Assembly: GCA_965242865.1 (NCBI GenBank)
Contig: CBDETK010000013.1
Coordinates: forward strand, 2,688,001 to 2,752,000
Direction of reading: 5' to 3'
Source of the DNA: Candidatus Latescibacterota bacterium
Lineage (GTDB): Bacteria; Latescibacterota; UBA2968; UBA8231
Length of the DNA stretch: 64,000 nucleotides
Shown: one piece after another, positions 10,940-47,377 of the stretch
How positions within the stretch are numbered: position 1 is the stretch's first letter
Layout: each line of letters begins with the position of its first letter
The notes under the pieces: generated by a model
The model's input: the letters and a program-made list of their open reading frames with translations, nothing else
The model's database searches: none
What the model was told of the DNA's origin: nothing
Program-made: the position numbers and the translations under genes

Positions 10940-10943
10940 CAGT

Positions 10944-11910: not shown

Positions 11911-11911
11911 C

Positions 11912-13003: not shown

Positions 13004-13027
13004 GCACCGTTCCTACGTTCTTTTGCG

Positions 13028-13059
13028 ACGCGGAGCAGCTAGTCTGCTCCGCGTTTTTT
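13028..13059 (+). terminator. Intrinsic terminator
   Basis: 11-bp perfect stem ACGCGGAGCAG/CTGCTCCGCGT followed by a T-run. Confidence 0.85.
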
Positions 13060-13113
13060 ATGCTCTGGCCGAGGCCAAGCGCGGCGATCGCAAACAAAAC
13101 CTTAAAAAAAGCG

Positions 13114-13142
13114 GGAAATGAATCGCAGGGTCGGTCGTCTAA
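13114..13142 (+). promoter_or_regulatory. Putative ECF promoter for the second spy-like copy
   Basis: GGAAA-N18-GTCTAA, then TGGGGCA as at 12329-12341. Confidence 0.6.
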
Positions 13143-25160: not shown

Positions 25161-25174
25161 CTAAGGAGCGCACC

Positions 25175-25960
25175 ATGTCCGACTCATACTTGCTGAGCGA
25201 AAAAAAGGCCCTCGTCACCGGCGGCAAGCGCCGCATTGGCCGCGGCATTGCCCTCGCGTTAGCCGAAGCCGGCTGCGACGTGGGGATCAACGACCTGCAC
25301 GACGACGCGGACGTTGGCAAAACCCTGAGCCTAATCCGCGCCATGGGCCGCGAGGCCGAATTCTTCGCCGGCGACATTTCCGCTCGCGACCAAGTCGAGG
25401 CGATGTTCGCGGCCTTTCTCGCCCGGTTTGGCCGCATTGACATCTTGGTCAACAACCCCTACGGCGGCACGGGCGCGCCCTTCCTCGAACTCAGCGAGGA
25501 AAATTGGGATCAAAACCTCGACGTGGGCCTCAAGGGATTTTTCCTGTGCTCGCAGCAGGCGGCGCGCGCCATGGTGGCGCAAGGCAACGGCGGCGCCATC
25601 GTCAGCACCTCTTCGGTCCACGGACGGCGGGCGTGGAAAGACGACACCGCGTACGGGGCCGCCAAAGCCGGCGTCTTGCGCCTGACCGAAAGCATGGCCG
25701 TTGACTTGGGCGAACACGGCATCCGCTGCAATGCCATCATGCCCGGATACATGGACACCGATCACGTCTTCAACCAACCGCCCCCGGCGTTGGGCGTTCT
25801 CGGCGAGCAGTACCACAACATCGTTCCCCTGCGTCGTCCGGGAACCCCCGAAGACATTGGCCGAGCCGTAGTCTTTCTTTGCTCGCCGGCCGCTGGCTGC
25901 ATCACCGGGGCGTCCCTGCCGGTGGATGGGGGGCTTTTGGCCGCCTCGGCCGCCGAGTAG
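25175..25960 (+). CDS. SDR family oxidoreductase
   Basis: TGGKRRIG, DILVNN, YGAAK, VDGG. Confidence 0.92.
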   Translation: MSDSYLLSEKKALVTGGKRRIGRGIALALAEAGCDVGINDLHDDADVGKTLSLIRAMGREAEFFAGDISARDQVEAMFAAFLARFGRIDILVNNPYGGTGAPFLELSEENWDQNLDVGLKGFFLCSQQAARAMVAQGNGGAIVSTSSVHGRRAWKDDTAYGAAKAGVLRLTESMAVDLGEHGIRCNAIMPGYMDTDHVFNQPPPALGVLGEQYHNIVPLRRPGTPEDIGRAVVFLCSPAAGCITGASLPVDGGLLAASAAE

Positions 25961-25976
25961 GGGCTTTAAGGCCCCC

Positions 25977-28578: not shown

Positions 28579-28618
28579 TCGCCTGTGTTCGCTGCTGATT
28601 TTGGGTAGTGGGTCATTT

Positions 28619-29178
28619 AGCACGATCCGCTCCGCATCGCCAATCCCATTTACGCGGAAATCGTGCCGTGCGAACTGACCTATTCCACCCAATCTGGGCT
28701 CGTCCAAGACCCGGCTTGGTACATCCATGCCGATGGTCGCTTGGACGTGGTCAAACTGCTGACCGCGTTCCAGACGTTCTTCCGCGAACACTCCGAGCAT
28801 TGGGTCAAGCGATTCCAATATCAAGAGGCTGGTCCGCAGTTGCTGTTGCAGGCGTTTTTGCAACGGATCGTCAACAGCGGCGGGCGCATCGAGCACGAGT
28901 ATGGCTTAGGCCGGAAACGCACCGATCTGCTCCTCGTCTGGCCACAGGGCGAGCGCACGCACAAAATTGTGATCGAATGCAAAGTGCTCCACAAGAGCTT
29001 GGAGCAAACTATCGCCGAGGGGTTGGCGCAGACCGCCGAGTACATGGACCGTTGCGCGGCCGAGGCGGGTCATTTAGTGATTTTCGACCGGCGCGCAGGT
29101 CGGCGTTGGGAGGACAAGGTGTTTCGGGTTCGCCGAGTGTCGGACAGTGGGACGGAGATCGACATCTGGGGCATGTAA
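28619..29178 (+). pseudogene. 3' fragment (copy A) of the AAA-ATPase/PD-(D/E)XK gene
   Basis: High DNA identity to 46635-47194 and ~30265-30824; ATPase domain missing. Confidence 0.9.
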
Positions 29179-29249
29179 GGATGGCGGCGGAGAGACGGGG
29201 TACGCACGGGTCAATGACCGGAACAGACCATAAAGGGGAGACTCAAACC

Positions 29250-30824
29250 ATGCGCTTTTTCACTACCGCTGGCCCCATCAAGCCGGCCAGGCACTATTGC
29301 ATCCCGCCGTTGGAACGCTTGAACCTCGCCGCGGTACTCGCTCTCATTCGGGACGAAAAGTATTTCGTCCTGCACGCACCTCGGCAGACGGGCAAGACCT
29401 CTATCCTGCTGGCCTTGCGCGACCTGCTCAACGCCGAGGGCCTCTACCGTTGCGTGTACGTCAATGTCGAAGGGGGGCAAGCCGCCCGCGAGGATGTGGA
29501 ACAAGTGACGCGCACCATGCTGGGCGAGTTGGCCCTCCGAGCACTCTCGACGCTGGACGACGGGTTTCTCGACGCGAGTTGGCCCGACATCTTGACCAAG
29601 TACGGTCCGCACGCGGCCTTGCGTGCAGCGTTGACGCGCTGGGCCAAAGCCGATCCGAAACCGCTGGTGCTGCTCATCGACGAGATCGACGCGCTGATCG
29701 GCGACTCGCTCCTGTCCGTGTTGCGGCAGTTGCGGGCGGGCTATGACCTGCGGCCAGCAGGGTTTCCGCAAAGCGTGGTGCTGTGCGGGGTGCGCGACGT
29801 GCGCGATTACCGCATCCATTCTAGTTCGGCCAACGCGATTATCGCCGGAGGGAGCGCGTTCAACATCAAATCGCGCTCATTGCGCTTAGGCGACTTTTCG
29901 CAGGACGAGGTGCAAGCTCTGCTCGGCCAGCACACTGAAGAGACGGGTCAGGTATTCACGCCAGACGCACTGGAAACGATCTGGACGCAGACCCAAGGGC
30001 AGCCATGGTTGGTCAACGCCTTGGCCGATCAAACCTGCTTCCGCGATGACGCCGCTGACCGGCGCGAGCCAATCACGGCCACGGCCATCATCGCGGCGAA
30101 AGAGCACCTCATCCTGCGGTGCGAAACCCACCTCGACCAATTGGCGGACAAGCTCCAAGAAGAGCGCGTACGGCGCATCGTGGAGCCGCTGTTGAGCGGG
30201 GCTGAAAAGAGCGACTTCTCGGCCCGCGATCTCGAATACGTGCGCGATCTGGGTCTCGTGGCTCAAGACCGCCCCCTCCGCATCGCCAATCCGATCTACG
30301 CCGAGGTCATTCCCCGCGAACTGACCTGGGTGATCCAAGAGGAATTTAATCAGGACACGGCTTGGTACGTCCATGCCGACGGCCGCTTGGACGTGGTCAA
30401 ACTGCTGACCGCATTCCAGACGTTCTTCCGCGAACACTCCGAACATTGGGTCAAGCGGTTCCAGTATCAAGAGGCCGGTCCGCAGTTGCTGTTGCAGGCG
30501 TTTTTGCAACGGATCGTCAACAGCGGCGGGCGCATTGAGCGCGAGTATGGCTTGGGTCGGAAACGGACCGATCTGCTCCTCGTCTGGCCGCAGGGCGAGC
30601 GGGAGCGCAAGTTCGTGATCGAGTGCAAAGTGCTCCACAAGAGCTTGGAGCAGACTATCGCCGAGGGGTTGGCGCAGACCGCCGAATATATGGACCGTTG
30701 CGCGGCCGAGGCGGGTCATTTAGTGATTTTCGACCGGCGCGAGGGTCGGCGTTGGGAGGACAAGGTGTTTCGGGAGCGCCGAGCGTCGGATAGTGGGACG
30801 GAGATCGACATCTGGGGCTTATGA
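29250..30824 (+). CDS. AAA-like (AAA_35/STAND-like) ATPase with C-terminal PD-(D/E)XK nuclease, copy B
   Basis: APRQTGKTS Walker A, LLIDEID Walker B, EREY..RTDL..VIECK. Confidence 0.88.
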   Translation: MRFFTTAGPIKPARHYCIPPLERLNLAAVLALIRDEKYFVLHAPRQTGKTSILLALRDLLNAEGLYRCVYVNVEGGQAAREDVEQVTRTMLGELALRALSTLDDGFLDASWPDILTKYGPHAALRAALTRWAKADPKPLVLLIDEIDALIGDSLLSVLRQLRAGYDLRPAGFPQSVVLCGVRDVRDYRIHSSSANAIIAGGSAFNIKSRSLRLGDFSQDEVQALLGQHTEETGQVFTPDALETIWTQTQGQPWLVNALADQTCFRDDAADRREPITATAIIAAKEHLILRCETHLDQLADKLQEERVRRIVEPLLSGAEKSDFSARDLEYVRDLGLVAQDRPLRIANPIYAEVIPRELTWVIQEEFNQDTAWYVHADGRLDVVKLLTAFQTFFREHSEHWVKRFQYQEAGPQLLLQAFLQRIVNSGGRIEREYGLGRKRTDLLLVWPQGERERKFVIECKVLHKSLEQTIAEGLAQTAEYMDRCAAEAGHLVIFDRREGRRWEDKVFRERRASDSGTEIDIWGL

Positions 30825-30882
30825 GGACAGCGGCGGTGGCAATGAACTGATGCAGGAGTTGACTTTCTTTTTTCCCTACCTA

Positions 30883-31093: not shown

Positions 31094-31876
31094 GTGGAGC
31101 TGAATGTCGTTTTTAGCAGTAGCGTCGCGCCCAATGCGACACTGCCTCTTGCTATCGACTTGGATGAGGCAGCGACGACAGCGGTCGTCGTGCTGGCGGA
31201 GTCCGAACTTGTGGGAGACTCTAAATGGATGGATTACGTTCACAATCTCGCCGAACACACCGAAGATAGCGGATTTGGCTCGCGGTTGTTCCCGATAATG
31301 ATGGAAGAGGCGGGCCTCAAGATGGAAATTGGCGAACAGGCCCTGCGCTGGGATCGTTGGGAAGGAACCGACGCAGAACGCGGCCAACGCCTCGTCCGGG
31401 AACTCGTGTATGAGTTCAGTCGGATGCTCCGGCGTTATCTCGCGCACCTCAGGCATCCAGAAGCAGACGACAAGGGCCTTGAGCACTACTTGGAGAAAGT
31501 GCAGATTTTTCTCAGCCATTCAAAACACGACAACGATGGGGAACGCATCGCCAAGAGTATTCGAGATTGGTTGCACCAGAACAGCGGGCTGTCGAGTTTT
31601 TTTGACATAATAGATATTCCCGCGGGTGTACGTTTTCAGGATGTCCTTTACCACCAAGTTAAGAGGAGCGTGGTCGTGGCTGTACATACTGATTCCTACT
31701 CGTCGCGTGAATGGTGTCGGCGCGAGATCATCGAAGCGAAACTCCAGAATGTTCCGATGATTGTGGTCAATTGTATGACGGATATTGACGAGCGCGGCTT
31801 TCCGTACATGGGCAATGTGCCCATCGTGCGGATGGCTCCGAATGAGACCTTGAGCCAGTGGCTCGCGGAGGTGTAG
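31094..31876 (+). CDS. TIR domain protein (possibly shortened)
   Basis: IFLSHSKHD, FFD..DIPAG, YSSREWCRREI with catalytic Glu. Confidence 0.85.
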   Translation: MELNVVFSSSVAPNATLPLAIDLDEAATTAVVVLAESELVGDSKWMDYVHNLAEHTEDSGFGSRLFPIMMEEAGLKMEIGEQALRWDRWEGTDAERGQRLVRELVYEFSRMLRRYLAHLRHPEADDKGLEHYLEKVQIFLSHSKHDNDGERIAKSIRDWLHQNSGLSSFFDIIDIPAGVRFQDVLYHQVKRSVVVAVHTDSYSSREWCRREIIEAKLQNVPMIVVNCMTDIDERGFPYMGNVPIVRMAPNETLSQWLAEV

Positions 31877-31878
31877 CG

Positions 31879-33264
31879 ATGGCCTATATGCCAACGATTG
31901 CTGGCAACACAGTGGCAATCTCGATCTCGGAAAGCCCAGATATGTCGGTATTTGGGCTAAGCGACGCGCATCTGCGCGATGCCATGGATAGACTCGCGCT
32001 GCATTTACTCTCGTCCGGTGCTCGCCTCGCCTATGGTGGCGATCTGCGGAAGGACGGATTTACGGAATGGTTGTTTGAACTGGTGCGTCGCTACCGGCGC
32101 GAGACGAGTGAAACCCAGATTGGCGTGACCAATTACCTCGCATGGCCGAACCATATAAGCATGTCCGCGGACGAACTCGAAAAAATTTCTAACAGCTTTA
32201 ACGACACTGGAGAATTGGTCTGCCTAACGCAGGATGGCCGCTTTTTGGAACCGCGGAAATGGCGCAAACGTGTATTGCACCAGCCAAGCACTGAGGAATG
32301 GGCCATCGGATTGACCGCCATGCGGCGCGTCATGCGCGAGGCGACCCAAGCGAGAGTCGTATTAGGTGGGAAAGTCGCCGGTTACAAAGGCACTATGCCC
32401 GGCATTGCGGAGGAAGCCCTGCTGTCGCTCCAGAAACGTCAGCCGCTGTTCCTGTTGGGTGGCTTCGGCGGCTGTACCCGGGACATTGCCGAGACCCTCG
32501 GGCTGGTTGAGCGTTGGGCAGGCTCCCGCTCTGCTTGGCCGGGCCGCCAGAAATTCGCGGCGTTCTCGCCCGATACTGGCTTGAGCAATGGGCTTTCGGA
32601 GGATGAAAACGCCACCCTCGCCCATACACCGCATATAGATCAAGCAACCATACTGGTCATGCAGGGGCTACACCGACTTGGACTCCAAAAGGAGAAAGAT
32701 ATGAGCCAAACGAATAGGCACAAAGTATTCGTCAGTTTCCATCACGAAGATCAAGAGTACAAGGACCTGTTCGTCCGCATGATGGGAGACGATATGGTGG
32801 ATAGATCGGTTGAAGATGGCGACATAGGTGACCTCAATATCAAAACGGAAACTCTGCGCCAAAAAATCCGCGACGACTTCATTGCCGACGCAACTGTAAC
32901 GATTGTGTTGATTGGCCCTTGCACTTGGAAACGGAAGCATGTGGATTGGGAGATCGGATCCAGCTTGAGGAAAACGGATAATAACCCCCGCTGCGGTCTG
33001 TTGGGGATTCTGTTGCCCAATCACCCAGATTTTGGGACGGGAAAGTACCATCCTCACCTGATACCGCCGAGGCTGGCGGATAACTGCGGAGACGATGCCC
33101 CCTACGCCTGCATTTACAATTGGCCCGGCCAGCAGGCGACGGGTCAGATTCGCCAATGGATTCACAAGGCATTTCTAAGAAAAGATGGAACGCCGCCCGA
33201 CAACAGTCGGGATCTGTTTGGAAAAAACAGGGGCGGCGATTGTTCAGAGGGCTGGGTGGACTAG
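31879..33264 (+). CDS. SLOG domain fused to ThsB-like TIR (DUF1863)
   Basis: AISISES, AYGGDLR, LTAMR, LGGK..GY.G.MPGIAEE, GGFGG; then KVFVSFHH, VLIG..TW.RKHVDWEI; internal RBS and ATG at 32701. Confidence 0.85.
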   Translation: MAYMPTIAGNTVAISISESPDMSVFGLSDAHLRDAMDRLALHLLSSGARLAYGGDLRKDGFTEWLFELVRRYRRETSETQIGVTNYLAWPNHISMSADELEKISNSFNDTGELVCLTQDGRFLEPRKWRKRVLHQPSTEEWAIGLTAMRRVMREATQARVVLGGKVAGYKGTMPGIAEEALLSLQKRQPLFLLGGFGGCTRDIAETLGLVERWAGSRSAWPGRQKFAAFSPDTGLSNGLSEDENATLAHTPHIDQATILVMQGLHRLGLQKEKDMSQTNRHKVFVSFHHEDQEYKDLFVRMMGDDMVDRSVEDGDIGDLNIKTETLRQKIRDDFIADATVTIVLIGPCTWKRKHVDWEIGSSLRKTDNNPRCGLLGILLPNHPDFGTGKYHPHLIPPRLADNCGDDAPYACIYNWPGQQATGQIRQWIHKAFLRKDGTPPDNSRDLFGKNRGGDCSEGWVD

Positions 33265-33318
33265 ATCGGCGTGTGGGCGTTGGGCGATAAATCATTAGTT
33301 GTGACTCGGGATGGTGGA

Positions 33319-34716
33319 ATGGCTACAAACCTGAAACCCTACCCCTCCTACAAGCCCTCCGGCGTCGAGTGGCTCGGCGAGGTGCCCGCGCATTGGGAGG
33401 TGCGACGAGTCAAGCACGCATTTAGACGAATCGTCGGAGGATCAACGCCATTGAGCAACGAGATGGCCTACTGGGATGGCACGATTATTTGGGTCACGCC
33501 AACCGACATCGGCAGAGTGACACGGTTGCGGGACTCTCTGCGTCGGATTACGAGAAAGGGGTTTGACTCTTGCTCCGCTACATTAGTGCCTGTTGGAAGT
33601 TTAGTGGTCACGTCGAGAGCACCCGTAGGAAACGTGGCTCTTGCAGAAGTCCCGCTCTGTACCAATCAAGGTTGCAAAGCCTTGGTTCCAGATAGCCAAG
33701 TCATTGCTTCTGCCTATGGCTATCAAGTGTTTGGGATACTCAAAGATGAGCTTCAGAGCTTGGCCAATGGCACTACATTTACCGAAATTTCAACCAACGC
33801 TCTCGGAAATGTTTTATTGCCCATCCCGCCCCTCCCCGAGCAAGCCGCCATCGTCCGCTATCTCGACCACACCGACGGACGCATTCGCCGCTACCTCCGC
33901 AGCCGGAAACGGCTCATCGAGTTGCTCAAAGAGTATCGACAGGCCGTCGTCCACGAGGCGGTCACACGCGGGCTTGACCCGGACGTGTCCCTCAAGCCCT
34001 CCGGCGTCGAGTGGCTCGGCGACGTACCGACGCATTGGGAGGTGCGACGACTGCGATACGCTGTTAAAATGAAGGTGAGTAACGTTGATAAACACAGCAA
34101 AGACGAAGAGCTTCCCGTCCGACTTTGCAATTATGTTGACGTGTACAAAAACGACCGCATTACCGAGAGGGTGCCGTTTATGAGAGCCACGGCAAAGGTG
34201 GATGAAATGGATCGCTTCCGGTTAGAAATAGGCGACGTTCTGATTACCAAAGATTCGGAAGTATGGAACGACATTGGGGTGCCTGCGTTTGTTGAGTATT
34301 CGGCAAGAGATTTGGTTTGCGGGTATCATTTGGCCTTGTTGCGTTCAATGAAGAGTGTGCTCAATGGTGCGTATCTATTCTATTCTTTACAGAGTTCGGC
34401 GATTGCTTCTCAGTTCCATATCGCGGCCAACGGGGTAACTCGCTATGGCTTGTCTCATCATGCCATCAAATCCGCGCTTTTGCCCATTCCATCCCTCGCC
34501 GAGCAAGCCGCCATCGTCCGCTATCTCGACAAACAGACCGCCGCCATCGACGCTGCCATGGCTCGCGCCCAGCAGGAGATCGAATTGTTGAGCGAATACC
34601 GTATCCGTCTGATTGCCGACGTGGTCACCGGCCAAGTGGATGTGCGCGAGGCAGCCGAACTATCTTATCTCGGACAAGGTGATAGCACCAAAGGCGATGG
34701 TGGAGAAGGTAGCTAG
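33319..34716 (+). CDS. hsdS: Type I R-M specificity subunit
   Basis: Duplicated KPSGVEWLG and P/SLxEQAAIVRYLD conserved regions around two TRDs. Confidence 0.95.
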   Translation: MATNLKPYPSYKPSGVEWLGEVPAHWEVRRVKHAFRRIVGGSTPLSNEMAYWDGTIIWVTPTDIGRVTRLRDSLRRITRKGFDSCSATLVPVGSLVVTSRAPVGNVALAEVPLCTNQGCKALVPDSQVIASAYGYQVFGILKDELQSLANGTTFTEISTNALGNVLLPIPPLPEQAAIVRYLDHTDGRIRRYLRSRKRLIELLKEYRQAVVHEAVTRGLDPDVSLKPSGVEWLGDVPTHWEVRRLRYAVKMKVSNVDKHSKDEELPVRLCNYVDVYKNDRITERVPFMRATAKVDEMDRFRLEIGDVLITKDSEVWNDIGVPAFVEYSARDLVCGYHLALLRSMKSVLNGAYLFYSLQSSAIASQFHIAANGVTRYGLSHHAIKSALLPIPSLAEQAAIVRYLDKQTAAIDAAMARAQQEIELLSEYRIRLIADVVTGQVDVREAAELSYLGQGDSTKGDGGEGS

Positions 34717-34743
34717 CACTGGAAAACTCAGGAGGAGTGCAAA

Positions 34744-36834
34744 ATGAAATTGACCATAAAGCAGTTTCGAGTTCTGAATTACCGCAACATTGACGATAGC
34801 GGCTGGATCCCACTCGAGCGCGTGACGGCTTTTGTTGGCCGGAACGAATCCGGCAAGACTACTCTGCTAAAGGCCCTGCACAAGTTCAATCCGGCAACCA
34901 CTGAGCCTTACAACGCGCAATGGGATTTTCCGCGTGACCGATTCACGGCTGAGTATCGAGATGGTAGCAAATGGCCGGTTTGTGAGGTAGAATTTGAACT
35001 TTCGGCTGAATTTCAACAGGAACTTAGGGAACAGTTGAACGGTTCTGAGATACCGAATAAGGCGATTTTGACGCGATTCTATGACGGGTCTCTAAAGTTC
35101 AAATACGACATAGAGATTCCGCTGGACCTGATTGATCCTGATGAGTTACAAGAGACGCTGAATGTATTCGCGAAAGAGGCACGGCGGCTTTCGTCCCCAG
35201 ACTATCAAGAGCATGAAATGCAAGGGATCAGGACAAATCTGGCGAATTGGGCTGATGAAAAGAAAGACGCTATTGCGGGATTCCAAGATTTGCGAACCGA
35301 TGAAGGTGTTAGACTGTTGCGCCAAGTGAGGGAAGAAGTGAACAGATTTGCACATCCTACAACGGCCGATCTCATTGAGGTTCTAAATGAGAAGGTCAAT
35401 TGTCTGCTCAGCCAAGCTGAAAAGCCCTCAATTCCAGAACAGCTTGATAAAGCTGTCGAGAGTGAGCTGCCTGTTTTTATTTATTTTGAGAACTATGGAA
35501 TCCTTGACAGCGCGGTGTACTTGCCGCGATTCTTGGAGGATTTGAGGTCGAAACAGCAAGTTTCGCGTATTCGGACTATCAATGCGATGTTCAAACATGT
35601 TAATCTCACTGCCAAAGAAATTGCAGATTTAGGCGATGGAGAGACAAGACAAGCACGCAGATATGGTTCTCAAGTTACCGAAGGTATGATTCAAAATGAT
35701 CAGGAGCAGGTGGCTCTGCGAAGTATCAAGTTAAACTCGGCATCTAATGATATTTCAAAAAAATTTAGCCAGTGGTTTGGTCAGAGGCGACACAAAATCA
35801 GCTATCAGGCTGACGGCGATTATTTTCGTATATGGGTATCTGACGATCGAAGACCAAATGTGGATATAGAATTGGAAAGTCGTAGCAAAGGCTTTCAATG
35901 GTTCTTCTCGTTTTACTTGCTGTTTTTGGTGGAATCAGAGGAAGGGCACAAGGACGCTGTCTTACTATTAGACGAGCCGGGGTTACACTTGCACCCAACC
36001 GCACAGCAAGAACTACTATCGTTTTTTGAAAAATTGTCGGAAGATAATCCGCTTATCTACACCACGCACTCTCCGTTCTTGATAGATGGCGAGTATATAC
36101 ACCGCGTTCGGCCTGTAACCGAAGATGAAACCGGACATTCGCGCATCAGTATCGATGGCTGGCCGAAAGACAGGGAAACGATTTTCCCTCTGCAAGCGGC
36201 GGCGGGTTACGCAATGGTACGCGGGCTTTTCCAGCATAAAAAGAACGTGTTGGTGGAAGGGATGGCGGATTACCTTTATCTCCACAGTCTGAATCTTCAT
36301 TGTCGTGCTCTCAGGCGTCAGAGTTTATCTGACGATATCTACATAACGCCGTGTGGAGGAACCAAAAACGTTGGTCATATCGCGTCGTTGTTCCTTGGGC
36401 AGAAAGTGCGTCCGGTGATCTTGCTTGATGGCGACACTGCTGGGAGGGCACGGCGAGATTCCCTGATGAAGGAATTGTATGCGGGCAATGAAAAGGCAGT
36501 ATTGATGTTGGGAGATGTGTTAGACCAAGAGGAGTGCGAGGTTGAGGATATCATTGGTGAGGAGACAATTCTGGCAGCACTGAGTGAGTTCGTTGACAAG
36601 ACAGTAAGTCTGAACCAAGATGATCGTAACCGAGGTAGCCTCGTTGACCAAATCAGGTGTGCTACTGATCGAGATAACATAGAGTTGCCAGAAGGCTGGA
36701 AGCCAGAGGTTGCGCGCCAGATCGTCTTATCGTGGTCGACGGCTAAGTCAACAGAAATACCGGAAGACATTTTGGATAGGGCAGAGAGACTATTCAAGGA
36801 ATTGACGAGGCGTTTTGAAGATATAGATCTGTAA
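34744..36834 (+). CDS. OLD-family ABC ATPase-TOPRIM nuclease
   Basis: GRNESGKT, RSKGFQ, LLLDEP, TTHSP; TOPRIM VEG..D and DGD; visibly lower GC. Confidence 0.85.
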   Translation: MKLTIKQFRVLNYRNIDDSGWIPLERVTAFVGRNESGKTTLLKALHKFNPATTEPYNAQWDFPRDRFTAEYRDGSKWPVCEVEFELSAEFQQELREQLNGSEIPNKAILTRFYDGSLKFKYDIEIPLDLIDPDELQETLNVFAKEARRLSSPDYQEHEMQGIRTNLANWADEKKDAIAGFQDLRTDEGVRLLRQVREEVNRFAHPTTADLIEVLNEKVNCLLSQAEKPSIPEQLDKAVESELPVFIYFENYGILDSAVYLPRFLEDLRSKQQVSRIRTINAMFKHVNLTAKEIADLGDGETRQARRYGSQVTEGMIQNDQEQVALRSIKLNSASNDISKKFSQWFGQRRHKISYQADGDYFRIWVSDDRRPNVDIELESRSKGFQWFFSFYLLFLVESEEGHKDAVLLLDEPGLHLHPTAQQELLSFFEKLSEDNPLIYTTHSPFLIDGEYIHRVRPVTEDETGHSRISIDGWPKDRETIFPLQAAAGYAMVRGLFQHKKNVLVEGMADYLYLHSLNLHCRALRRQSLSDDIYITPCGGTKNVGHIASLFLGQKVRPVILLDGDTAGRARRDSLMKELYAGNEKAVLMLGDVLDQEECEVEDIIGEETILAALSEFVDKTVSLNQDDRNRGSLVDQIRCATDRDNIELPEGWKPEVARQIVLSWSTAKSTEIPEDILDRAERLFKELTRRFEDIDL

Positions 36835-36870
36835 ATTAAGGACGTTCCGTGTAGGGAAGGCAAACCGACC

Positions 36871-37929
36871 ATGATCAAATACAAGACCGGCGACATTCTC
36901 GCGGAAGATGCCGAAGCTCTGGTCAACACCGTCAACTGCGTCGGGGTCATGGGGCGTGGCATCGCGCTACAGTTCAAGCGTGCCTTTCCCGAAAATTTCA
37001 AAGCCTACGCCGCACGGTGCAAGCGCGGCGCAATGCAACCGGGACAGGTGTTCGTCTTCGAGACCGGGCAACTTATCCATCCCCATTACATCATCAACTT
37101 TCCCACCAAACGGCACTGGCGGGGCAAAAGCCGCTTGGAGGATATCGAATCCGGCTTGGTGTCGCTCGCAACAGAAATACGAACGCGGGGCATCCGCTCC
37201 ATTGCCATCCCCCCGCTTGGCAGCGGGCTGGGTGGCTTGGAGTGGTCGGAAGTACGCCGGCGTGTGCAGGCGGCTTTGGAGAAATTTGACGATGTGAAGG
37301 TCGTCGTATTTGAGCCTAGCGGCCCGGTGGATCAAAGGGCCAATCGTTCGCGCGAGGTCCCGGAAATGACAGCAGGACGGGCCGCGCTTATCGGGCTAAT
37401 GGACCGCTACCTACGCGGTCTGCTGGATCCATTCATTACCCTGCTCGAAGTACACAAGCTCATGTACTTCATGCAGACCGCTGGCGAGCCGTTGAGGCTG
37501 CGATTCGCCAAAGGTCCTTACGGTCCTTACGCCGATAACCTCCGGCACGTCTTGCATGCCATGGAAGGACACTTTGTGTCCGGTTACGCAGACGGGGGCG
37601 ATGCTCCCCACAAAGAATTGGAACTGGTGCCGGGTGCGCTTGAGGATGCACGCACCTTTCTCGCGAACACGCCGCAAACGCCCGCCCGCTTTGAAAAGGT
37701 GGCCGCCCTCGTTGAGGGGTTTGAGTCGTCCTTTGGCTTGGAATTGCTGGCCACCGTCCATTGGGTCGTCCGCGAAGAGCAGGCATCGACCCTTGCCGAG
37801 GTCGTCGAGCGAACCTATATGTGGAACGAGCGAAAGAGACAGTTCACCCGCCGACAACTCGGCATTGCCCTCGATGTGCTCGCCGAGAAGAACTGGATAG
37901 AAGGCCCCCGCGCACCCCACACCCCATGA
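36871..37929 (+). CDS. darG: DarG macrodomain antitoxin (no darT present)
   Basis: LVNTVNCVGVMGRGIA, NFPTKRHW, PPLGSGLGG, KLMYF, GLELLATVHW. Confidence 0.9.
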   Translation: MIKYKTGDILAEDAEALVNTVNCVGVMGRGIALQFKRAFPENFKAYAARCKRGAMQPGQVFVFETGQLIHPHYIINFPTKRHWRGKSRLEDIESGLVSLATEIRTRGIRSIAIPPLGSGLGGLEWSEVRRRVQAALEKFDDVKVVVFEPSGPVDQRANRSREVPEMTAGRAALIGLMDRYLRGLLDPFITLLEVHKLMYFMQTAGEPLRLRFAKGPYGPYADNLRHVLHAMEGHFVSGYADGGDAPHKELELVPGALEDARTFLANTPQTPARFEKVAALVEGFESSFGLELLATVHWVVREEQASTLAEVVERTYMWNERKRQFTRRQLGIALDVLAEKNWIEGPRAPHTP

Positions 37930-37999
37930 CCGCCGCCATGGCCCGCGCCCAGCGGGAGATCGAATTGCTGAGCGAATACCGGACGCGCCTGATCGCCGA
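37928..37999 (+). pseudogene. hsdS 3' conserved-region remnant
   Basis: Matches 34536-34619 apart from a 12-bp deletion (AMARAQREIELLSEYRTRLIAD). Confidence 0.9.
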
Positions 38000-38002
38000 T
38001 AA

Positions 38003-38176
38003 GTGGGCGAAAAGCATAAGCATCGGTGGTCCGAACGGTATCGGGACAAGGAAGCCTATATTCCGAATGACATCACCGCGTCGATTGCGGAACCCGCGGA
38101 TGTTTGGAAGCAATTTTGTGGAGAAGCGGGTATTGAACACAATGGTAGGATGAACCCACCGGAGATATTCCAATGA
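38003..38176 (+). pseudogene. C-terminal remnant of a DUF6978-like partner gene
   Basis: VGEKHKHRWSERYRDKEAYIP...VWKQFCGEAGI; ATGA-coupled to the next gene; 5' end replaced by the hsdS fragment. Confidence 0.6.
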
Positions 38177-38937
38177 ACCATAGAGATATACAGGACGAAA
38201 TCGGCGCGTTGTTCACGTGTACGGAGCACGGCGACTATCAGCGGATTCGCACGCCGTATTTGTATCCCGATGGCGACAATATCGACCTGTTCTGCGCGGT
38301 CGATGGCGATGCGATAACCGTAACCGATCTCGCCGAGACCACGGGCTGGCTTTGGATGCAGTCGCTGTCGTTGCGGCGTTCTCCCAAGCAGAACCGCCTC
38401 ATTGAAGACACTTGTGTTACGCACGGGGTTGAGTTCTATCGCGGTATGCTCCAAGCGCGGTGTCGGCCCGGCGACTCGTTGGCCGCGGCGGTTACGCGCG
38501 TGGCGCAAGCGGCCCTGCGGGTCTCTGACCTGTGGTTCACGTTCCGAACTCGCGCCTTTGAATCAGTCACCGATGAAGTGGCTGCCTACCTGACCGAACG
38601 CGCATTGCCCTTTGATCGAGCCGAAAAATTAGTCGGTCGCTCAGGGCGCGATTGGACCATAGACTTCCGCATTCGCACCGGCGAGCGTAGTGCGCTAGTC
38701 TATGTGTTGAGCACCGGAAATCGATCCTCGGCACCTAAAGTCACCGAGCACGTACTGGCCGCTTGGCACGATCTATACCATCTCGCAACGGGTGCTGAAG
38801 CACTGCATTTCGTTTCCCTTTTTGACGACACCGCCGATGTTTGGGCAACGGCAGACTTCCATCTCGTCGAATCGCTGTCCACCGTGTCGCGCTGGTCAAA
38901 GCCGGATGAGTTCGCCGAAGTGTTGACGGAGGCTTGA
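38173..38937 (+). CDS. DUF1828/DUF1829-like protein
   Basis: IRTPYLYPDGDNIDL, VTDLAET, GRSG..W.IDF. Confidence 0.75.
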   Translation: MNHRDIQDEIGALFTCTEHGDYQRIRTPYLYPDGDNIDLFCAVDGDAITVTDLAETTGWLWMQSLSLRRSPKQNRLIEDTCVTHGVEFYRGMLQARCRPGDSLAAAVTRVAQAALRVSDLWFTFRTRAFESVTDEVAAYLTERALPFDRAEKLVGRSGRDWTIDFRIRTGERSALVYVLSTGNRSSAPKVTEHVLAAWHDLYHLATGAEALHFVSLFDDTADVWATADFHLVESLSTVSRWSKPDEFAEVLTEA

Positions 38938-39014
38938 GATGCTCCCCACAAAGAATTGGAACTGGTGCCGGGTGCGCTTGAGGATGCACGCACCTTTCTC
39001 GCGAACACGCCGCA
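38938..39014 (+). repeat. 77-bp exact copy of an internal darG segment
   Basis: Identical to 37600-37676. Confidence 0.95.
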
Positions 39015-39132
39015 TCCACAAACCATCTTCGGTCATAACGGATATCATTGCCCTTTTCGCGCCTTTCGCGTATTTCGTAGTAGAGTGCAACCGCTACGAT
39101 AGAAGAACCGCCCAACGAGGATAACCGGAACC

Positions 39133-40290
39133 ATGGGGAGCCGACGCTTGCAGATAACCTTGCAACCAGCCGTGTTGCAGTGGGCGCGAGAACGTGCGGG
39201 CATTAGCTTGGAGGAATTGGCCTGCAAAGCAAAGGTCAGCCAAGAGCGCGTACTAGAGTGGGAACGTTCCGGCAAAATCAGCATTGCCCAAGCCGACCGG
39301 CTCGCCGATTGCACCCATACGCCCCTCGGCCTTCTGTATTTGACCTATCCACCTGCCGAGCCCCTTCCAATAGCGGATTTCAGGACGCGGACCGATGACC
39401 CGCCCCCGCACTCAAGTCCCGACTTGCTCGAGACGGTCTATCTCATGCAGCGGCGCCAGTCTTGGATGCGCGACGAACTCATTGAGAGCGGCACGGAGCC
39501 GCTGGCCTACATCGGTGCTTATGAGCTAGATGAGTCGCCCTTACAAATGGCGGCAGCGATGCGCCAGTTGCTGAAACTCGCCGACGGTTGGGCGGCGGTG
39601 GAAGGCTCTTGGACCAATGCGCTGGGACTTATGCGAGATCGGGCTGAAGCGGCTGGCGTGTTGGTGGTTTTCAATGGCATCGTGGGCAACAATACGCGCC
39701 GCAAACTGGACCCGGACGAGTTCCAAGGTTTTGCCCTCGTGGATGCGTATGCCCCGCTCATTTTTGTCAATGGGGCCGACGTCAAAGCCGCGCAGATATT
39801 TACCCTAGCTCACGAGTTGGCGCATCTCTTCGTCGGAGAATCTGGTTTATCCAAGTTCGTCGACCTCGATCCAGGACACCATGCAATCGAACAGTTCTGC
39901 AACGAGGCGGCTGCCGAATTTCTGGTCCCGGAGCAGGACTTACGCGCTTTTTGGCCCACAGCCAAGTCGTCTGCCGACCCCTATCAAACCCTTGCCCGGC
40001 ACTTCAAGGTGAGCTCTATCGTAGGTGCTCGCCGCGCTCTGGATATCAGTTTGATCAGCCGAGACGCCTTCCATCAATTTTATCGCGCCTATCAGGAAGA
40101 CCAGCACCAACGAAGATCAGGCGGCGATTTTTGGAATCTTCCCAAATGGCGCATCGGCCCCAAGTTTGCCGCCGCCGTGATTCGTGCGACCAAGGCGGGT
40201 CGCTTGTCCTATCGCGATGCGTATGCGCTCACTGGGTTAAAAGGGACCAGCTTTGAAAAGCTAACCGATAAGATGGGTATTCAGCTATAA
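39133..40290 (+). CDS. XRE HTH-ImmA/IrrE (M78) metallopeptidase
   Basis: LQWARERAG HTH, DFRT, FTLAHELAH, CNEAAAEFL. Confidence 0.9.
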   Translation: MGSRRLQITLQPAVLQWARERAGISLEELACKAKVSQERVLEWERSGKISIAQADRLADCTHTPLGLLYLTYPPAEPLPIADFRTRTDDPPPHSSPDLLETVYLMQRRQSWMRDELIESGTEPLAYIGAYELDESPLQMAAAMRQLLKLADGWAAVEGSWTNALGLMRDRAEAAGVLVVFNGIVGNNTRRKLDPDEFQGFALVDAYAPLIFVNGADVKAAQIFTLAHELAHLFVGESGLSKFVDLDPGHHAIEQFCNEAAAEFLVPEQDLRAFWPTAKSSADPYQTLARHFKVSSIVGARRALDISLISRDAFHQFYRAYQEDQHQRRSGGDFWNLPKWRIGPKFAAAVIRATKAGRLSYRDAYALTGLKGTSFEKLTDKMGIQL

Positions 40291-40412
40291 TGAGTTGGTA
40301 TCAATCTTTGCGCGTACTCGATGCCAATGTCTGCCGTCAGTTCGGCGTCCGTTATCAGGATACCTATGCCATGCTGAGCGACCTCAACGTTCAATTCGAG
40401 TGGAAGCGATGA
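40290..40412 (+). pseudogene. Internally deleted DUF4411/PIN-like gene
   Basis: MSWYQSLRVLDANV|CRQFGVRYQDTYAMLSDLNVQFEWKR*: N- and C-terminal motifs joined at 'NV'. Confidence 0.7.
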
Positions 40413-43390
40413 CCACCGACACCACCGAACGCGGCCTAGAGCAGCGCGTCTGCGAGCTGCTGACCCACCGGGCCGACGCGCCGGACGCCGCTGAGGTGCG
40501 GGAACGCCCGGCCACTTATGACATCGGCTGGCTCAACGGGCACTCCGACGACTACGACCGCGAACACTGCATAGACTTGGCCCAGTTGACCGCCTTCCTC
40601 AAGGCAACGCAGCCGCACCTCGTCGCCGCGCTAGCTTTGGACGCGGACAGCCCGGTGCGCCGCAAGTTCCTCGCCCGCCTGAAAAACGAAGTCGGCAAGC
40701 GCGGCATCGTCGAAGTCCTCCGCAACGGCGTTAAGCACGGGCCGCACACCATCGCGCTCTTGTACGGCACTCCCTCGCCGGGCAACCCGCAGGCCGCAAC
40801 CCGCTACGAGCAGAACCGCTTTTCGGTGACGCGCCAGTTGTCGTACAGCAACGCCAACAAGCGGCGGACCCTCGACCTCGCGCTGTTCATCAACGGCCTG
40901 CCGGTGGCGACCTTTGAGTTGAAAAACAGCCTCACCAAACAGACCGCGGCCGATGCCGCAGAGCAATACAAACGCGACCGCGATCCCAAAGAGGAGCTCT
41001 TCCGCCTCGGCCGCTGCTTGGTCCACTTTGCCGTGGATGATCTCGAAGTGCGGTTCTGCACCCACCTCAACGGCAAGGCGTCGTGGTTCCTGCCGTTCAA
41101 CCAGGGTTGGAACGACGGCGCGGGCAACCCGCCCAACCCCAACGGCATCAAGACCGATTACCTGTGGCGTGAGGTGCTGACTCGGCAAAGCCTGACCGAC
41201 ATCGTGGAGAACTACGCCCTGCTGATCGAATCCACGGACCCCGAGACCGGGCGCAAAGCCAAGGCGCAAATCTGGCCGCGCTATCACCAGTTGGACGTGG
41301 TGCGGAAACTGTTGGCCTCGGTCGCCGAGCACGGCGTCGGGCAACGCTATCTCATCCAGCACTCGGCCGGCAGCGGCAAGTCCAACTCCATTGCGTGGTT
41401 GGCGCACCGGCTCATCGGCTTGGAAAAGGGCGGCCGGCCGGTCTTTGATTCCATCATCGTCGTAACGGACCGCAAAATCTTGGACCGGCAGATCAACGAC
41501 ACCATCCGGCAGTTCGCGCAAGTGGGGGCGACCGTGGGCCACGCGGAAAATGCCGGCGATTTGCGCCGCTTTATCGCCGCCGGCAAGAAAATCATCATCT
41601 CCACCGTGCAAAAGTTCCCGTTCATCTTGGACGAGATCGACAACGATCATCCAAGCCGCCGCTTTGCCATCGTCATCGACGAAGCCCACTCCAGCCAAGG
41701 CGGGCGCACGGCCTCGGCCATGGCGAGCGTCTTGGGGGATCCCGCCGCGGATGCGGACGACACGGTTGAGGATCAAATCAACCGCATCATTGAACAGCGG
41801 CGTTTGCTGGCCAACGCCAGTTATTTCGCCTTCACCGCCACGCCCAAGAACAAGACGCTGGAATTGTTCGGCGCGCCCGCGCCGCAACCCGACAGCGCGA
41901 TCCAGCATCGGCCCTTCCACAGCTACGCCATGAAGCAGGCCATCCAAGAGGGGTTCATCTTGGACGTGCTCGGGCACTACACGCCGGTGACGAGCTACTA
42001 CCGCCTCGCCAAAACCACGACCGACGACCCTAAGTTCGACGCCAACAAGGCGCACAAAAAGCTCATCCGCTATGTGGAAACCCACAGCCGAGCCATTCGC
42101 CTCAAAGCCGAGATCATCGTCGATCACTTCCACGAGCAGGTGCTGGCCCCGCGCAAAATCGACGGACAGGCGCGAGCCATGGTCGTCACCAGCGGCATTG
42201 AGATGGCCATAGCTTACTATCGCGCCATCCGCGACTACCTCGCCGAGCGCGGCAGCCCGCACAAAGCCATCGTCGCCTTTTCCGGCGAGGTCGAGTACGG
42301 CGGCGAGCAAGTGAGCGAAGCGCGGTTGAACGGGTTTCCGTCGTCGCAGCTCGCCCGCAACATTCAGCGCGACCCCTATCGGTTTCTCGTCTGCGCGGAC
42401 AAGTTCCAGACCGGCTACGACGAGCCGCTGTTGCACACCATGTACGTCGATAAGGTTTTGTCCGGCATCCGGGCGGTGCAGACCTTGTCGCGCCTCAACC
42501 GCGCCCACCCGGGCAAGCGCGATACGTTTGTGCTTGATTTCCACAACGACGCCGACGCCATCAAAGACGCGTTTGCCGCGTACTACCGCACCACCATCTT
42601 GGCGGACGAAACCGACCCGAACAAATTGCACGACCTCAAGGCCGCACTGGACGACCGGCAGGTCTATTCCGCCGAGCAAATCGATGCGCTGGTGGCGGCC
42701 TATTTGAGCGGCGACGACCGCGCTGTTCTCGACCCCATCTTGGACGAGTGCGTGACCATCTATCGCCGCGATCTCGACGAAGACGAGCAGGTCGATTTCA
42801 AGGGCCATGCCAAAGCCTTCACCCGCACCTACAACTTCCTGTCGCAGGTGTTGCCCTACGAGAATGCCGATTGGGAAAAGCTGTCCATCGTTCTGACCCT
42901 GCTCATTCCCAAGCTGCCGACGCCCGCGGCCGAGGACAGGGCGCTCGGCATTGAGAATGCCATCGACATGGACAGCTACCGCGCCGAGAAACAGGCGACC
43001 CTGCACATCCTGCTGCCCGACGAGGACGCCGAAATCGAGCCGGTGCCGGCCAGCCGCGGCGGGTACCAGCCTGAGCCTGCAATGGATCGGCTCTCCAACA
43101 TTCTGCGGGAATTCAACGATTTGTTCGGCGATATTCCGTGGACGAGTGCGGATCGCATCCGCCGGATGATCACCGAGGATGTGCCGCAACTGGTCGAGGC
43201 GGACCATGCCTATCGCAACGCCCGGCAACACGCGGACGCGCAGAACACCCGCATTGAGCACGACCGGGCCTTGGCAAAGGCGATCACCGCCCTGCTCGCC
43301 GACGACGCCGAACTCTACAAGCAATACTCGGACAACGCAGCATTCAAACGCTGGCTGGCCAATAGCGTGTTTGAACTGACCTACCGATAG
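40409..43390 (+). CDS. hsdR: Type I R-M restriction subunit
   Basis: DLALFINGLP..FELK, HSAGSGKS, IDEAH, TATP, FQTGYD, QTLSRLNR. Confidence 0.96.
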   Translation: MTTDTTERGLEQRVCELLTHRADAPDAAEVRERPATYDIGWLNGHSDDYDREHCIDLAQLTAFLKATQPHLVAALALDADSPVRRKFLARLKNEVGKRGIVEVLRNGVKHGPHTIALLYGTPSPGNPQAATRYEQNRFSVTRQLSYSNANKRRTLDLALFINGLPVATFELKNSLTKQTAADAAEQYKRDRDPKEELFRLGRCLVHFAVDDLEVRFCTHLNGKASWFLPFNQGWNDGAGNPPNPNGIKTDYLWREVLTRQSLTDIVENYALLIESTDPETGRKAKAQIWPRYHQLDVVRKLLASVAEHGVGQRYLIQHSAGSGKSNSIAWLAHRLIGLEKGGRPVFDSIIVVTDRKILDRQINDTIRQFAQVGATVGHAENAGDLRRFIAAGKKIIISTVQKFPFILDEIDNDHPSRRFAIVIDEAHSSQGGRTASAMASVLGDPAADADDTVEDQINRIIEQRRLLANASYFAFTATPKNKTLELFGAPAPQPDSAIQHRPFHSYAMKQAIQEGFILDVLGHYTPVTSYYRLAKTTTDDPKFDANKAHKKLIRYVETHSRAIRLKAEIIVDHFHEQVLAPRKIDGQARAMVVTSGIEMAIAYYRAIRDYLAERGSPHKAIVAFSGEVEYGGEQVSEARLNGFPSSQLARNIQRDPYRFLVCADKFQTGYDEPLLHTMYVDKVLSGIRAVQTLSRLNRAHPGKRDTFVLDFHNDADAIKDAFAAYYRTTILADETDPNKLHDLKAALDDRQVYSAEQIDALVAAYLSGDDRAVLDPILDECVTIYRRDLDEDEQVDFKGHAKAFTRTYNFLSQVLPYENADWEKLSIVLTLLIPKLPTPAAEDRALGIENAIDMDSYRAEKQATLHILLPDEDAEIEPVPASRGGYQPEPAMDRLSNILREFNDLFGDIPWTSADRIRRMITEDVPQLVEADHAYRNARQHADAQNTRIEHDRALAKAITALLADDAELYKQYSDNAAFKRWLANSVFELTYR

Positions 43391-45509: not shown

Positions 45510-45574
45510 TCGGCGATCGGAAACCCTACCCATCCTACAAGTCCTCCGGCGGCGAGTGGCTCGTTGCCCATTGA
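45506..45574 (+). pseudogene. hsdS 5' remnant coupled to hsdM
   Basis: MIGDRKPYPSYKSSGGEWLVAH*; 45521-45563 matches 33334-33376 at 40/43 nt. Confidence 0.9.
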
Positions 45575-45622
45575 GCATCGCCCGCGAGATCACGGACAAG
45601 AGGTATCAGGGAGACTCAAACC

Positions 45623-47194: not shown

Positions 47195-47377
47195 GGAAGG
47201 CGGCGGTCAGCGGCCACGGCGAAAGACGCGAGTTAGCGAAGAATGCCGTCGCGCTTGTTAAACGTAGTCTTTAACATGGCCGAATAAGGGCTGTATATTA
47301 TTAACCTCTGCATTTTTAATGGAATAGTTTATATTCATTTACGCTCCTCATAGATTATATCTCCTACATGCGGATAG

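Follow-up and report, generated by a model that had tools for sequence, protein, structure and literature searches.

In the prr locus, which has the gene order hsdM-hsdS-prrC-hsdR, a classic abortive-infection gene encoding the anticodon nuclease PrrC occupies the slot between hsdS and hsdR of a type I restriction–modification (R-M) operon. More widely, the main text of a preprint on 'guilt-by-embedding' describes non-R-M defence genes that are embedded in type I R-M, BREX and DISARM operons, names PrrC as being almost exclusively embedded in type I R-M and presents PDC candidates, including PDC-M24A/B, that were derived from such embedded genes (bioRxiv 10.1101/2024.01.29.577857). For the RRDM island of enteropathogenic Escherichia coli (rptR-hsdM-hsdS-darT-darG-hsdR-M48), the hsdS–hsdR site has been called a 'potential recombination hotspot' on the grounds that different gene pairs are found there in other genomes (PMC12255303). 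A further point of comparison is provided by displacement arrays, in which orphan immunity genes lie behind type VI secretion system (T6SS) clusters or C-terminal regions are displaced at Rhs and contact-dependent inhibition (CDI) loci, homology-facilitated illegitimate recombination having been proposed as the mechanism (PMC5361080). Here, we describe a stretch of 64,000 nucleotides (hereafter the window; contig CBDETK010000013.1, positions 2,688,001 to 2,752,000) from the genome of a sponge-associated Candidatus Latescibacterota bacterium, in which genes for an OLD-family nuclease, DarG, a truncated PDC-M24A, PDC-M24B and an HTH-M78 protein are nested between the hsdS and hsdR genes of a type I R-M operon, together with short pieces of hsdS and darG. 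With moderate confidence, we interpret the segment from ~34659 to 40409 as what would be the cargo zone of this operon, in which anti-phage modules of different ages have probably decayed in part and the backbone has been altered by replacement and deletions.

The prr locus differs from this arrangement in having a single intact passenger, which interacts with the enzyme. As in the embedded systems described in the main text of the preprint (10.1101/2024.01.29.577857), same-orientation non-R-M genes lie between hsd genes, and OLD-type, TIR and DarG proteins are typical cargo; that survey, on the other hand, left out systems with pseudogenes, whereas the interest here lies in the broken pieces and their junctions, and the words 'hsdS', 'recombination' and 'remnant' each occur zero times in its main text. 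The likeness to RRDM consists of DarTG2-type genes between hsdS and hsdR; in contrast to RRDM, darT is absent here, the genes run hsdS...hsdR-hsdM, neither an RptR nor an M48 gene was seen and the slot contains more modules and fragments. The overall pattern would be that of homology-facilitated illegitimate recombination and resembles the Rhs/T6SS displacement arrays, which (PMC5361080) share with this locus an anchor in a conserved gene, an illegitimate other end, the absence of an integrase, the survival of older modules in orphan form, accompanied in many cases by a fragment of that conserved gene, and the outliving of toxic partners by protective ones (immunity proteins there; DarG and HTH-M78, in a putative role, here). 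The gene system is a different one, and here a clear homology boundary exists both downstream (the hsdR start) and upstream (the hsdS core). Orphan modules preceded by an hsdS fragment indeed lie downstream of the intact hsdS in the window (hsdS-OLD-darG-hsdS tail-M24), and G019, G038, L039 and L073 are alike (working labels: G, genomes compared; L, loci extracted from genomes; X, sequencing runs). That defence genes sit in type I R-M operons and DarTG2 in the hsdS–hsdR slot is already known; the locus adds informative scars and no new system or enzyme. Our literature searches, which covered main texts, listed no paper that treats hsdS tails as the seams along which cargo is exchanged.

We infer the following succession of events, together with the mechanisms of recombination and the donor. 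The starting backbone would be that shared with the two closest genomes, G046 and G019, namely SLOG-TIR, hsdS, (darT) darG, a Schlafen-like gene, hsdR and hsdM. A low-G+C OLD module would have taken the place of darT directly before darG, and the Schlafen-like gene would have given way to a string that came from a different allele of this type of locus, comprising an hsdS tail, PDC-M24A, PDC-M24B and HTH-M78. This string would have been joined on the right at the hsdR start codon, a putative homologous anchor, and on the left by a presumably illegitimate join through six nucleotides of microhomology. Later deletions would have removed 348 nucleotides (the end of the hsdS tail and two thirds of M24A from its 5′ side) and also DUF4411, the partner of HTH-M78, and a 77-nucleotide copy of the resident darG may have been put down after M24B as a templated patch, a small duplication or a gene-conversion tract. 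The sequences fit one homologous and one illegitimate junction, the ancestor being reconstructed from genomes that are 90–95% identical.

A single co-directional gene string on the + strand occupies 28.6–47.2 kb of the window. The genes hsdR, hsdM and hsdS are all present and intact on one strand, with full-length Pfam and PADLOC matches, and the OLD, DarG, PDC-M24A′/B and HTH-M78 genes between hsdS and hsdR are all on the + strand as well. In G046 the stop codon of darG (94.6% DNA identity) overlaps the start of the Schlafen-like gene, and the window matches G046 as far as 37936. Since the alignment of the hsdS tail already begins at 37931, six nucleotides, within the first 11 of the Schlafen-like gene, are common to both parents. 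Judged from these alignments, the connection of darG to the hsdS tail is a microhomology join and not an exchange between homologous arms. At the next junction, between the hsdS tail and the M24A fragment, 348 nucleotides are missing relative to positions 9469–9816 of L038, with at most four nucleotides shared at the ends; the gap comprises the last part of hsdS, a spacer and 268 nucleotides of M24A, which encodes 167 residues in relatives. Homology to the relatives starts again at 38001. The darG copy starts directly past the M24B stop codon, with an imperfect eight-of-nine match just upstream. On the right-hand side, homology to G046 and G019 (92–93%) resumes exactly at ATG 40409. The longest hsdR open reading frame (ORF) begins at a TTG codon 114 nucleotides upstream of this ATG, where the HsdR proteins of relatives begin, their alignments starting at residue 38–40 of the long ORF; the 38 extra codons (40295–40408) are probably spacer and not protein.

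At the upstream boundary, the conserved core of hsdS extends to 34658 (~residue 463), the point at which homology to G046 and most of the other alignments stop, and the last 55 nucleotides of the gene go with the OLD module, whose homology to G019 (34661–36852, 90% DNA identity) starts at 34661. The window and G019 agree to the nucleotide on where this module ends on the right, but darG follows it in the former and an hsdS tail in the latter. The module has a G+C content of 45–50%, compared with ~60% in its surroundings.

The first-pass annotation of this DNA had read the order hsdS, OLD nuclease, darG, hsdS piece, DUF6978′/DUF1828, darG piece as two stacked units with the same arms, the second pair of which had eroded. 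The gene order itself was recovered by the repeat search, self-BLAST and the Pfam, PADLOC and NCBIfam searches, and so was the exact 77-bp darG remnant: in the repeat search and self-BLAST of the window, 37600–37676 and 38938–39014 are identical at 77 of 77 positions (E 2.7e-33). The hsdS piece, which had been placed at 37928–37999 as a 3′ remnant, is also real; it is, however, an internal piece of the conserved region (37931/37937–38000) and not the 3′ end of the gene, 37926–37936 being the start of the Schlafen-like gene. Its match to the resident hsdS (34551–34619 versus 37931–37999) is 87% over 69 nucleotides (E 1.8e-16), or 84% when extended ungapped to 34544–34619 versus 37924–37999, and its identity rises to 90% for a tail in L039 and to 95.7% for hsdS_1 of G046. 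The proposed erosion of a redundant darG arm is not supported. The 77-nucleotide piece is 100% identical to the resident darG and only 88–89% identical to the darG genes of G046 and G019 over the same stretch, which makes it look like a recent local copy and not an eroded second arm. A worn-down second darG that had arrived with the M24 string would be expected to show ~4–9 mismatches, and by our own arithmetic 77 straight matches at 90% identity have p ~3e-4; we thus read the piece as having probably been copied locally and recently, by templated patching or as a small duplication, or else as a gene-conversion tract. Stacking by homologous or unequal recombination was likewise not borne out, the joins consisting of the six-nucleotide microhomology and the 348-nucleotide deletion.

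Comparison with relatives defines the extent of the variable region. DarG was searched for in 41 genomes, G000 included, with matches in 21, and 14 DarG loci with 20 kb of context were compared for gene order together with G046. The common order in relatives is hsdM ... hsdS ... (cargo) darT-darG ... (cargo) hsdR, in which the gene upstream of darG is DarT (PF14487, 198 bits; 212 residues). Between hsdS and darT/darG there is nothing in G046 or in G019, where darT is cut to 110 residues, an OLD homologue (59% amino-acid identity) in G034, two unknown proteins of 873 and 498 residues in G031, a split Schlafen/AlbA_2-HATPase_c_4 gene in G002 and M24AB in L063, L041, L065, L069 and L091. Between darG and hsdR there is nothing in G014 and G020, M24AB in G002, L076, L079, L087, L092, L108 and L109, HTH-M78 with DUF4411 in G031, G037 and G038, and the Schlafen-like gene in G046 and G019. 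The idea of an exchangeable slot between hsdS and darG, to which a lack of cargo variation in relatives would have been fatal, thus survives in so far as cargo does vary there, and fails in so far as this is not a defined cassette site: as far as these gene orders go, the variable zone is the whole interval from hsdS (~residue 463) to the hsdR start codon, plus the hsdM–hsdS interval, and not one slot bounded by darG.

The M24 module was followed separately by scanning an M24B alignment over one genome per species, which gave 165 confirmed relatives, the best 80 loci of which were analysed. An hsd gene lies within 10 kb in 53 of these 80 loci. The upstream neighbour (≤1 kb) is hsdS in 25 and darG in eight, the downstream neighbour (≤1.5 kb) is hsdR in 34 and darT/darG in eight, and 19 loci, some at contig ends, have no hsdS, darG, hsdR or darT neighbour on either side. 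M24AB can therefore lie on either side of darTG, after darG in 8/80 loci and before darT/darG in 8/80. In L115 the order is hsdS-M24A-M24B-HTH-M78-DUF4411-hsdR, the string whose remains sit in the window. The nearest M24 relatives among the best 80 loci, L038 and L039 (Latescibacterota), have hsdS-M24A(full)-M24B with 90.6–90.7% DNA identity to 38001–38942, in agreement with the earlier suggestion that the second block is a piece of another allele. Loose hsdS tails, comprising only the 3′ part of the gene, are recurrent: ten were found in nine of the 80 loci, starting at residues 362–425 and ending at ~460–481, and others occur in G019 and G038. The order is hsdS-darG half-HTH-M78 5′ piece-hsdS tail-darG piece in G038, M24B-darT 5′ piece-hsdS tail in L039 and M24B-hsdS tail-hsdR in L073. 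The order in the two closest genomes is hsdS-darT-darG-Schlafen-like-hsdR-hsdM (92%)-AAA-AAA-TIR-SLOG-TIR-hsdS in G046 and OLD (90%)-hsdS tail-Schlafen-like-hsdR-hsdM... in G019. Among metagenome contigs (51 loci), no close strain of the M24 module was found, the best identity being 78%.

Judged by gene integrity, the R-M genes, OLD and both TIR genes appear intact, while DarG, M24B and HTH-M78 would each be the single survivor of a two-gene module. The OLD protein combines an ATPase (AAA_15, residues 5–447) and a TOPRIM nuclease (OLD-like_TOPRIM, residues 499–564) in one polypeptide, as is proper to the OLD family; PADLOC did not distinguish between the stand-alone OLD and the fused PARIS-like class. 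Residues 2–337 of DarG cover positions 1–338 of the NCBIfam antitoxin_DarG profile, that is, the macro domain and the C-terminal DarT-binding part. The gene directly upstream is not darT, the OLD stop codon (36834) lying 36 nucleotides from the darG start, and tblastn with two DarT queries gave nothing above 45 bits in the 6.0-Mb assembly; a PF14487 family search of the same genome also gave no match, but was uninformative because its control matched in no genome. In the PDC-M24 pair, M24B is full length and M24A is a stump of 57 residues. DUF4411 follows HTH-M78 in L026, L034, L054, L067, L070 and L115, and none was found in the genome studied here. In the two cases in which roles are known or suspected, the survivor is the antitoxin-like partner, which is compatible both with selection for immunity and with mere tolerance of loss.

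Table 1. Features of the R-M island and its flanks, in window coordinates.
Feature	Position	Strand	Basis
AAA_35-like ATPase ORF, left repeat flanking the island	28608..30824	+	Pfam AAA_22/AAA_35
TIR_2 domain protein	31094..31876	+	Pfam TIR_2, 53 bits; PADLOC ThsB-like
SLOG cluster 2 + ThsB-type TIR protein	31858..33264	+	Pfam LD_cluster2, 253 bits; ThsB_TIR, 58.5 bits
hsdS, full length	33271..34716	+	Pfam Methylase_S; PADLOC Specificity_I, 350 bits
OLD-family ABC-ATPase + TOPRIM nuclease	34744..36834	+	Pfam AAA_15, AAA_21, OLD-like_TOPRIM
darG, full length, without darT (orphan antitoxin gene)	36871..37929	+	NCBIfam DarG equivalog, 460 bits (cut-off 250)
Source copy of the 77-nucleotide repeat, darG codons 244–269	37600..37676	+	Repeat search, self-BLAST
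First 11 nucleotides of Schlafen/AlbA_2-HATPase_c_4 gene, remainder replaced	37926..37936	+	Alignment with the G046 and G019 sequences; Pfam match of the Schlafen-like gene in G046
hsdS tail, conserved 3′ region, residues ~427–450 of 481	37931..38000	+	64–70 nucleotides; sequence comparison
PDC-M24A (DUF6978), 3′ fragment	38001..38176	+	ORF 38003–38176, 57 residues; PADLOC profile positions 90–143 of 151
PDC-M24B (DUF1828), intact	38173..38937	+	PADLOC, 342 bits; Pfam DUF1828
Exact 77-nucleotide copy of darG codons 244–269	38938..39014	+	Repeat search, self-BLAST
Spacer, 118 nucleotides	39015..39132	.	Last 15 nucleotides (from 39118) match upstream of HTH-M78 in L038
HTH_3 + Peptidase_M78 (ImmA/IrrE-like) gene, without DUF4411 partner	39133..40290	+	Pfam
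hsdR	40409..43390 (longest ORF from 40295)	+	Pfam HSDR_N, SWI2_SNF2, T1R_D3
hsdM	43410..45509	+	Pfam N6_Mtase, HsdM_N
hsdS 5′ remnant, 58 nucleotides, directly after hsdM	45506..45563	+	Identical junction in G019
AAA_35-like ATPase, right repeat flanking the island	45623..47194	+	Pfam; self-BLAST

Read evidence was drawn solely from Logan contigs, which are graphs of 31-letter words; the runs containing the stretch are labelled as sponge metagenome or carry coded organism names. In X11 (depth ~180), contigs with zero differences cover 36927–37629, 37647–38117 (the darG 3′ end, hsdS tail and M24A′) and 38985–40494, while X1, which is from another study and holds a strain of 96–98.6% identity, has contigs for 35068–37628, 37647–38780, 38752–38966 and 38985–40330. 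Each of the novel junctions turns up in one or more runs that do not belong to the likely source sample, and the only contig breaks fall within the 77-nucleotide repeat. This independent recovery argues against a chimeric assembly but does not prove the order of the two 77-nucleotide copies. Two alternative joints were also found. In X13, where the mean depth in the 37769–38019 bin is 1.68, one contig of 1797 nucleotides (depth 22.6, 0 differences) joins 37599 to 38938, corresponding to a looped-out form lacking the 1338-bp segment, and in X15 one contig of 306 nucleotides (depth 3.8) joins 38937 back to 37600, corresponding to a reciprocal circle or a tandem joint; both could be recombination products or graph artefacts. 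Stretches without contig cover in X13 and X15, such as OLD 36263–36764 in X13, were not counted as evidence. A joint of 34657 to 38001, with unknown letters between, is present in X11 (depth 241) and X13 (depth 22); its 918-nucleotide contig extends 378 nucleotides to the left of 38001, the 3′ end of hsdS lying ~313 nucleotides upstream of 38001, so that a co-occurring strain probably carries hsdS followed by a full M24A.

These runs hold several hsdS and M24A/M24B alleles at different depths, and the assembly (6.0 Mb in 13 contigs, 93.6% complete with 6.8% contamination) is not free of foreign material, from which it might be argued that strain variants were collapsed or chained into a false tandem. 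Since all of the novel junctions were seen independently in X11 and X1, with breaks only at the 77-nucleotide repeat, and since the window lies in a contig of 5.6 Mb, we hold such an artefact to be very unlikely. The stacking of two full hsdS-cargo-darG units by homologous or unequal recombination of their arms, the second of which would have eroded to 70 and 77 nucleotides, draws on the reality of both arm fragments, on the existence of hsdS-M24A-M24B-darT-darG alleles (L063, L041, L065, L069 and L091) and on the recurrence of stacked remnants in G038, L039 and L073. Homologous exchange from arm to arm, however, puts one cargo in the place of another and adds none; darG and hsdS′ are joined by a microhomology of six nucleotides located eight nucleotides past the darG stop codon, inside the start of another gene; the darG piece matches the first darG perfectly while the hsdS tail matches the first hsdS at 87%; and neither darT nor any further darG sequence was seen beside the 77-nucleotide copy. 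We accordingly view this history as distinctly improbable.

Active and reversible cassette exchange driven by RecA through short direct repeats (the 77-nucleotide darG repeat, the hsdS tails and the AAA genes), amounting to an integrase-free integron, would account for the looped-out contig in X13 and its reciprocal joint in X15, and the circular permutation of the island relative to G046 and G019 is what excision and re-entry are expected to produce. Against it, a graph built from 31-letter words yields exactly these two paths falsely at an exact repeat of 77 nucleotides if branches are sparse or absent, each of the joints is represented by one contig in one run, and in X11 and X1 the contigs go no further than the repeat. 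A circular permutation also results from a tandem duplication with later deletions, and the AAA mosaics lack a readable crossover. A repeat of 77 nucleotides is, moreover, short for efficient RecA exchange, and overall we find this mode of exchange quite unlikely. The internal direct repeats of hsdS (33346–33408/33988–34050 at 90% and 33817–33867/34480–34530 at 92%) and the extra pieces at 37931–38000 and 45506–45563 might, on the other hand, suggest phase-variable specificity, with the fragment serving as a silent partial hsdS for switching. The pieces (64–70 and 58 nucleotides) contain no target-recognition domain and are in direct orientation, and no recombinase gene is present among the 53 ORFs scanned; we give this explanation next to no chance, and it was rejected as a candidate for want of any alternative target-recognition domain.

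The reading of a cargo zone altered by replacement and deletions has its own difficulties. Gene conversion of an old second darG would look identical to a local copy of 77 nucleotides, and darT-darG does follow M24AB in some alleles (8/80 loci). Apart from the 15-nucleotide L038 match, the spacer at 39015–39132 (118 nucleotides) matched nothing else, either in the genome or among 121 loci. As stand-ins for the ancestor, G046 and G019 are no more than 90–95% identical, so that the six-nucleotide microhomology and the direction of the 'replacement' have been reconstructed. The best match of the hsdS tail (95.7%) is to the hsdS located before darTG in G046, and the tail could consequently be a backbone duplication and not an imported fragment. 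With 93.6% completeness and 6.8% contamination, darT could sit elsewhere. Finally, the mechanism would require the organism to take up DNA and to have the corresponding repair pathways. All of these points weigh against the reading that we prefer.

No integrase, resolvase or transposase family was matched by Pfam among the 53 ORFs of the window that were scanned (17 in or beside the island, 35 non-overlapping ORFs of at least 100 residues outside 25.9–47.2 kb, and 25058–25960). As regards an attC-like or conserved recombination site, only three weak inverted pairs were found in 27–46 kb, 8.8–11.9 kb apart and none meaningful at module ends; Rfam gave no match in 27–48 kb. The first-pass observation that integrase, transposase and attC-like site are all absent therefore stands. 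The stretch contains no tRNA gene, and a promoter and terminator scan of 30.8–47.4 kb gave counts as in shuffles (7 versus 7.6; 21 versus 17.7). Integron arrays resemble the locus in being one-directional strings of exchangeable, mostly promoterless modules, whereas here there is neither an IntI-type integrase nor attC-like imperfect inverted repeats, and the junctions occur at varied positions with microhomology. An integron-like array was accordingly rejected, there being no tyrosine recombinase and no attC-like site, with tails that begin at varied residues (362–425) and junctions with 2–6 nucleotides of microhomology; the integron-like framing of the first-pass annotation is too strong.

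On a larger scale, the window and G046/G019 (loci L118–L120 and L024) carry the genes of the entire island in circularly permuted orders. In the window, the order is AAA-TIR-SLOG-TIR-hsdS-OLD-darG-...-hsdR-hsdM-hsdS′-AAA, with AAA direct repeats of 88.5% identity at the flanks. The permutation fits excision via one repeat pair and re-entry via another, or a tandem duplication with subsequent deletions, as possible routes. The left AAA ORF (28608..30824) consists of a 3′ fragment (28619–29190) fused to a full copy (29236–30837), and in self-BLAST it matches 45609–47207 at 88.5% and 46635–47206 at 92.3%. The AAA_35-like ATPase, which has a weak PDDEXK_9 match, has many paralogues of 69–80% DNA identity across the genomes of this genus, and the copies flanking the island are mosaics of one another (sliding identity 70–95%), which suggests frequent gene conversion among them; sliding identity against the G046 and G019 copies revealed no readable breakpoint that would mark a crossover in the flanking AAA genes. 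In the search for an empty site, the orthologues of the DUF6785 and polysaccharide-synthesis genes were found to lie 360–440 kb apart in G019 and G046, and the AAA–AAA pair is present in G046 with the right flank of the window, the left flank being elsewhere. The DUF6785/DUF6784 protein beside the island (25926–27896) belongs to a very large paralogue family with 18–39 matches per genome in 31 genomes, some members of which are fused into proteins of >2000 residues.

Three hsdS 5′ remnants, one in the window (45506–45563) and two in G019 (L024, ~113–168 and 4057–4160), all break after the same conserved eight-base motif. Both G019 remnants are then followed by a related 27-nucleotide stretch (21/27 identical; score 24 versus 13.7 ± 2.1 for shuffles), and the remnant and its trailer seem to have been copied as one unit. 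Many relatives contain an ORF for the C-terminal half of DarG only (from residue ~156–166), without macro domain or darT and often directly behind hsdS (L031 9756–10328, L030 9806–10378, L034 9735–10331, L035 9252–9890, L033 9768–10375 and L029 9744–10439; also in L082, L090, L108 and L109), which may have arisen repeatedly by deletion or may be a small gene form in its own right.

M24B proteins are 65–79% identical across L038–L117, mostly in an hsd context, in records from Acidobacteria/Vicinamibacterales, Nitrospirales, Gammaproteobacteria, Spirochaetia, Planctomycetota, Dehalococcoidia and others, which points to a wide horizontal spread of the M24 module or of the whole operon. In L054 (~1–13140), hsdM-hsdS-HTH-M78-DUF4411-M24A-M24B-hsdR′ is followed by the same genes inverted, a mirror-image duplication that reflects either a genuine palindromic rearrangement or a fold-back in the assembly. 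In G046 (L119 10698–13270), a ThiF-family (E1-like) protein and a TIR/SEFIR protein lie between a gutted hsdM and hsdS as a further candidate defence pair.

A bolder view, which we regard as unlikely, is that the R-M operon in these symbionts would be an integrase-free, recombination-driven defence array, in which modules carry an hsdS tail or reach the hsdR head as an anchor and may loop out and re-enter through the short direct repeats that stacking would produce, the whole island doing likewise through AAA and hsdS repeats, as its circular permutation among genomes would suggest. If this were true, cells of one population would differ in defence content, and DarG and HTH-M78 would be retained as antitoxin-like survivors that protect against toxins brought in with new alleles.

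On the preferred reading of a cargo zone reshaped by replacement and deletions, the locus bears on how nested defence genes arise and swap fast without mobile-element genes, which is not explained in the texts covered by our literature searches. It preserves scars at the nucleotide level, with outer boundaries fixed at the start codon of hsdR and the end of the hsdS core, hsdS tails with ragged starts, joins at microhomologies, a local 77-nucleotide patch and survivors that are the non-toxic partners of their modules. These scars suggest a testable model of displacement by homology-facilitated illegitimate recombination among co-occurring strains, following the same logic as in Rhs/T6SS arrays. 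The locus also shows that many half-systems enter the tallies of 'defence systems' made for genomes of this kind.

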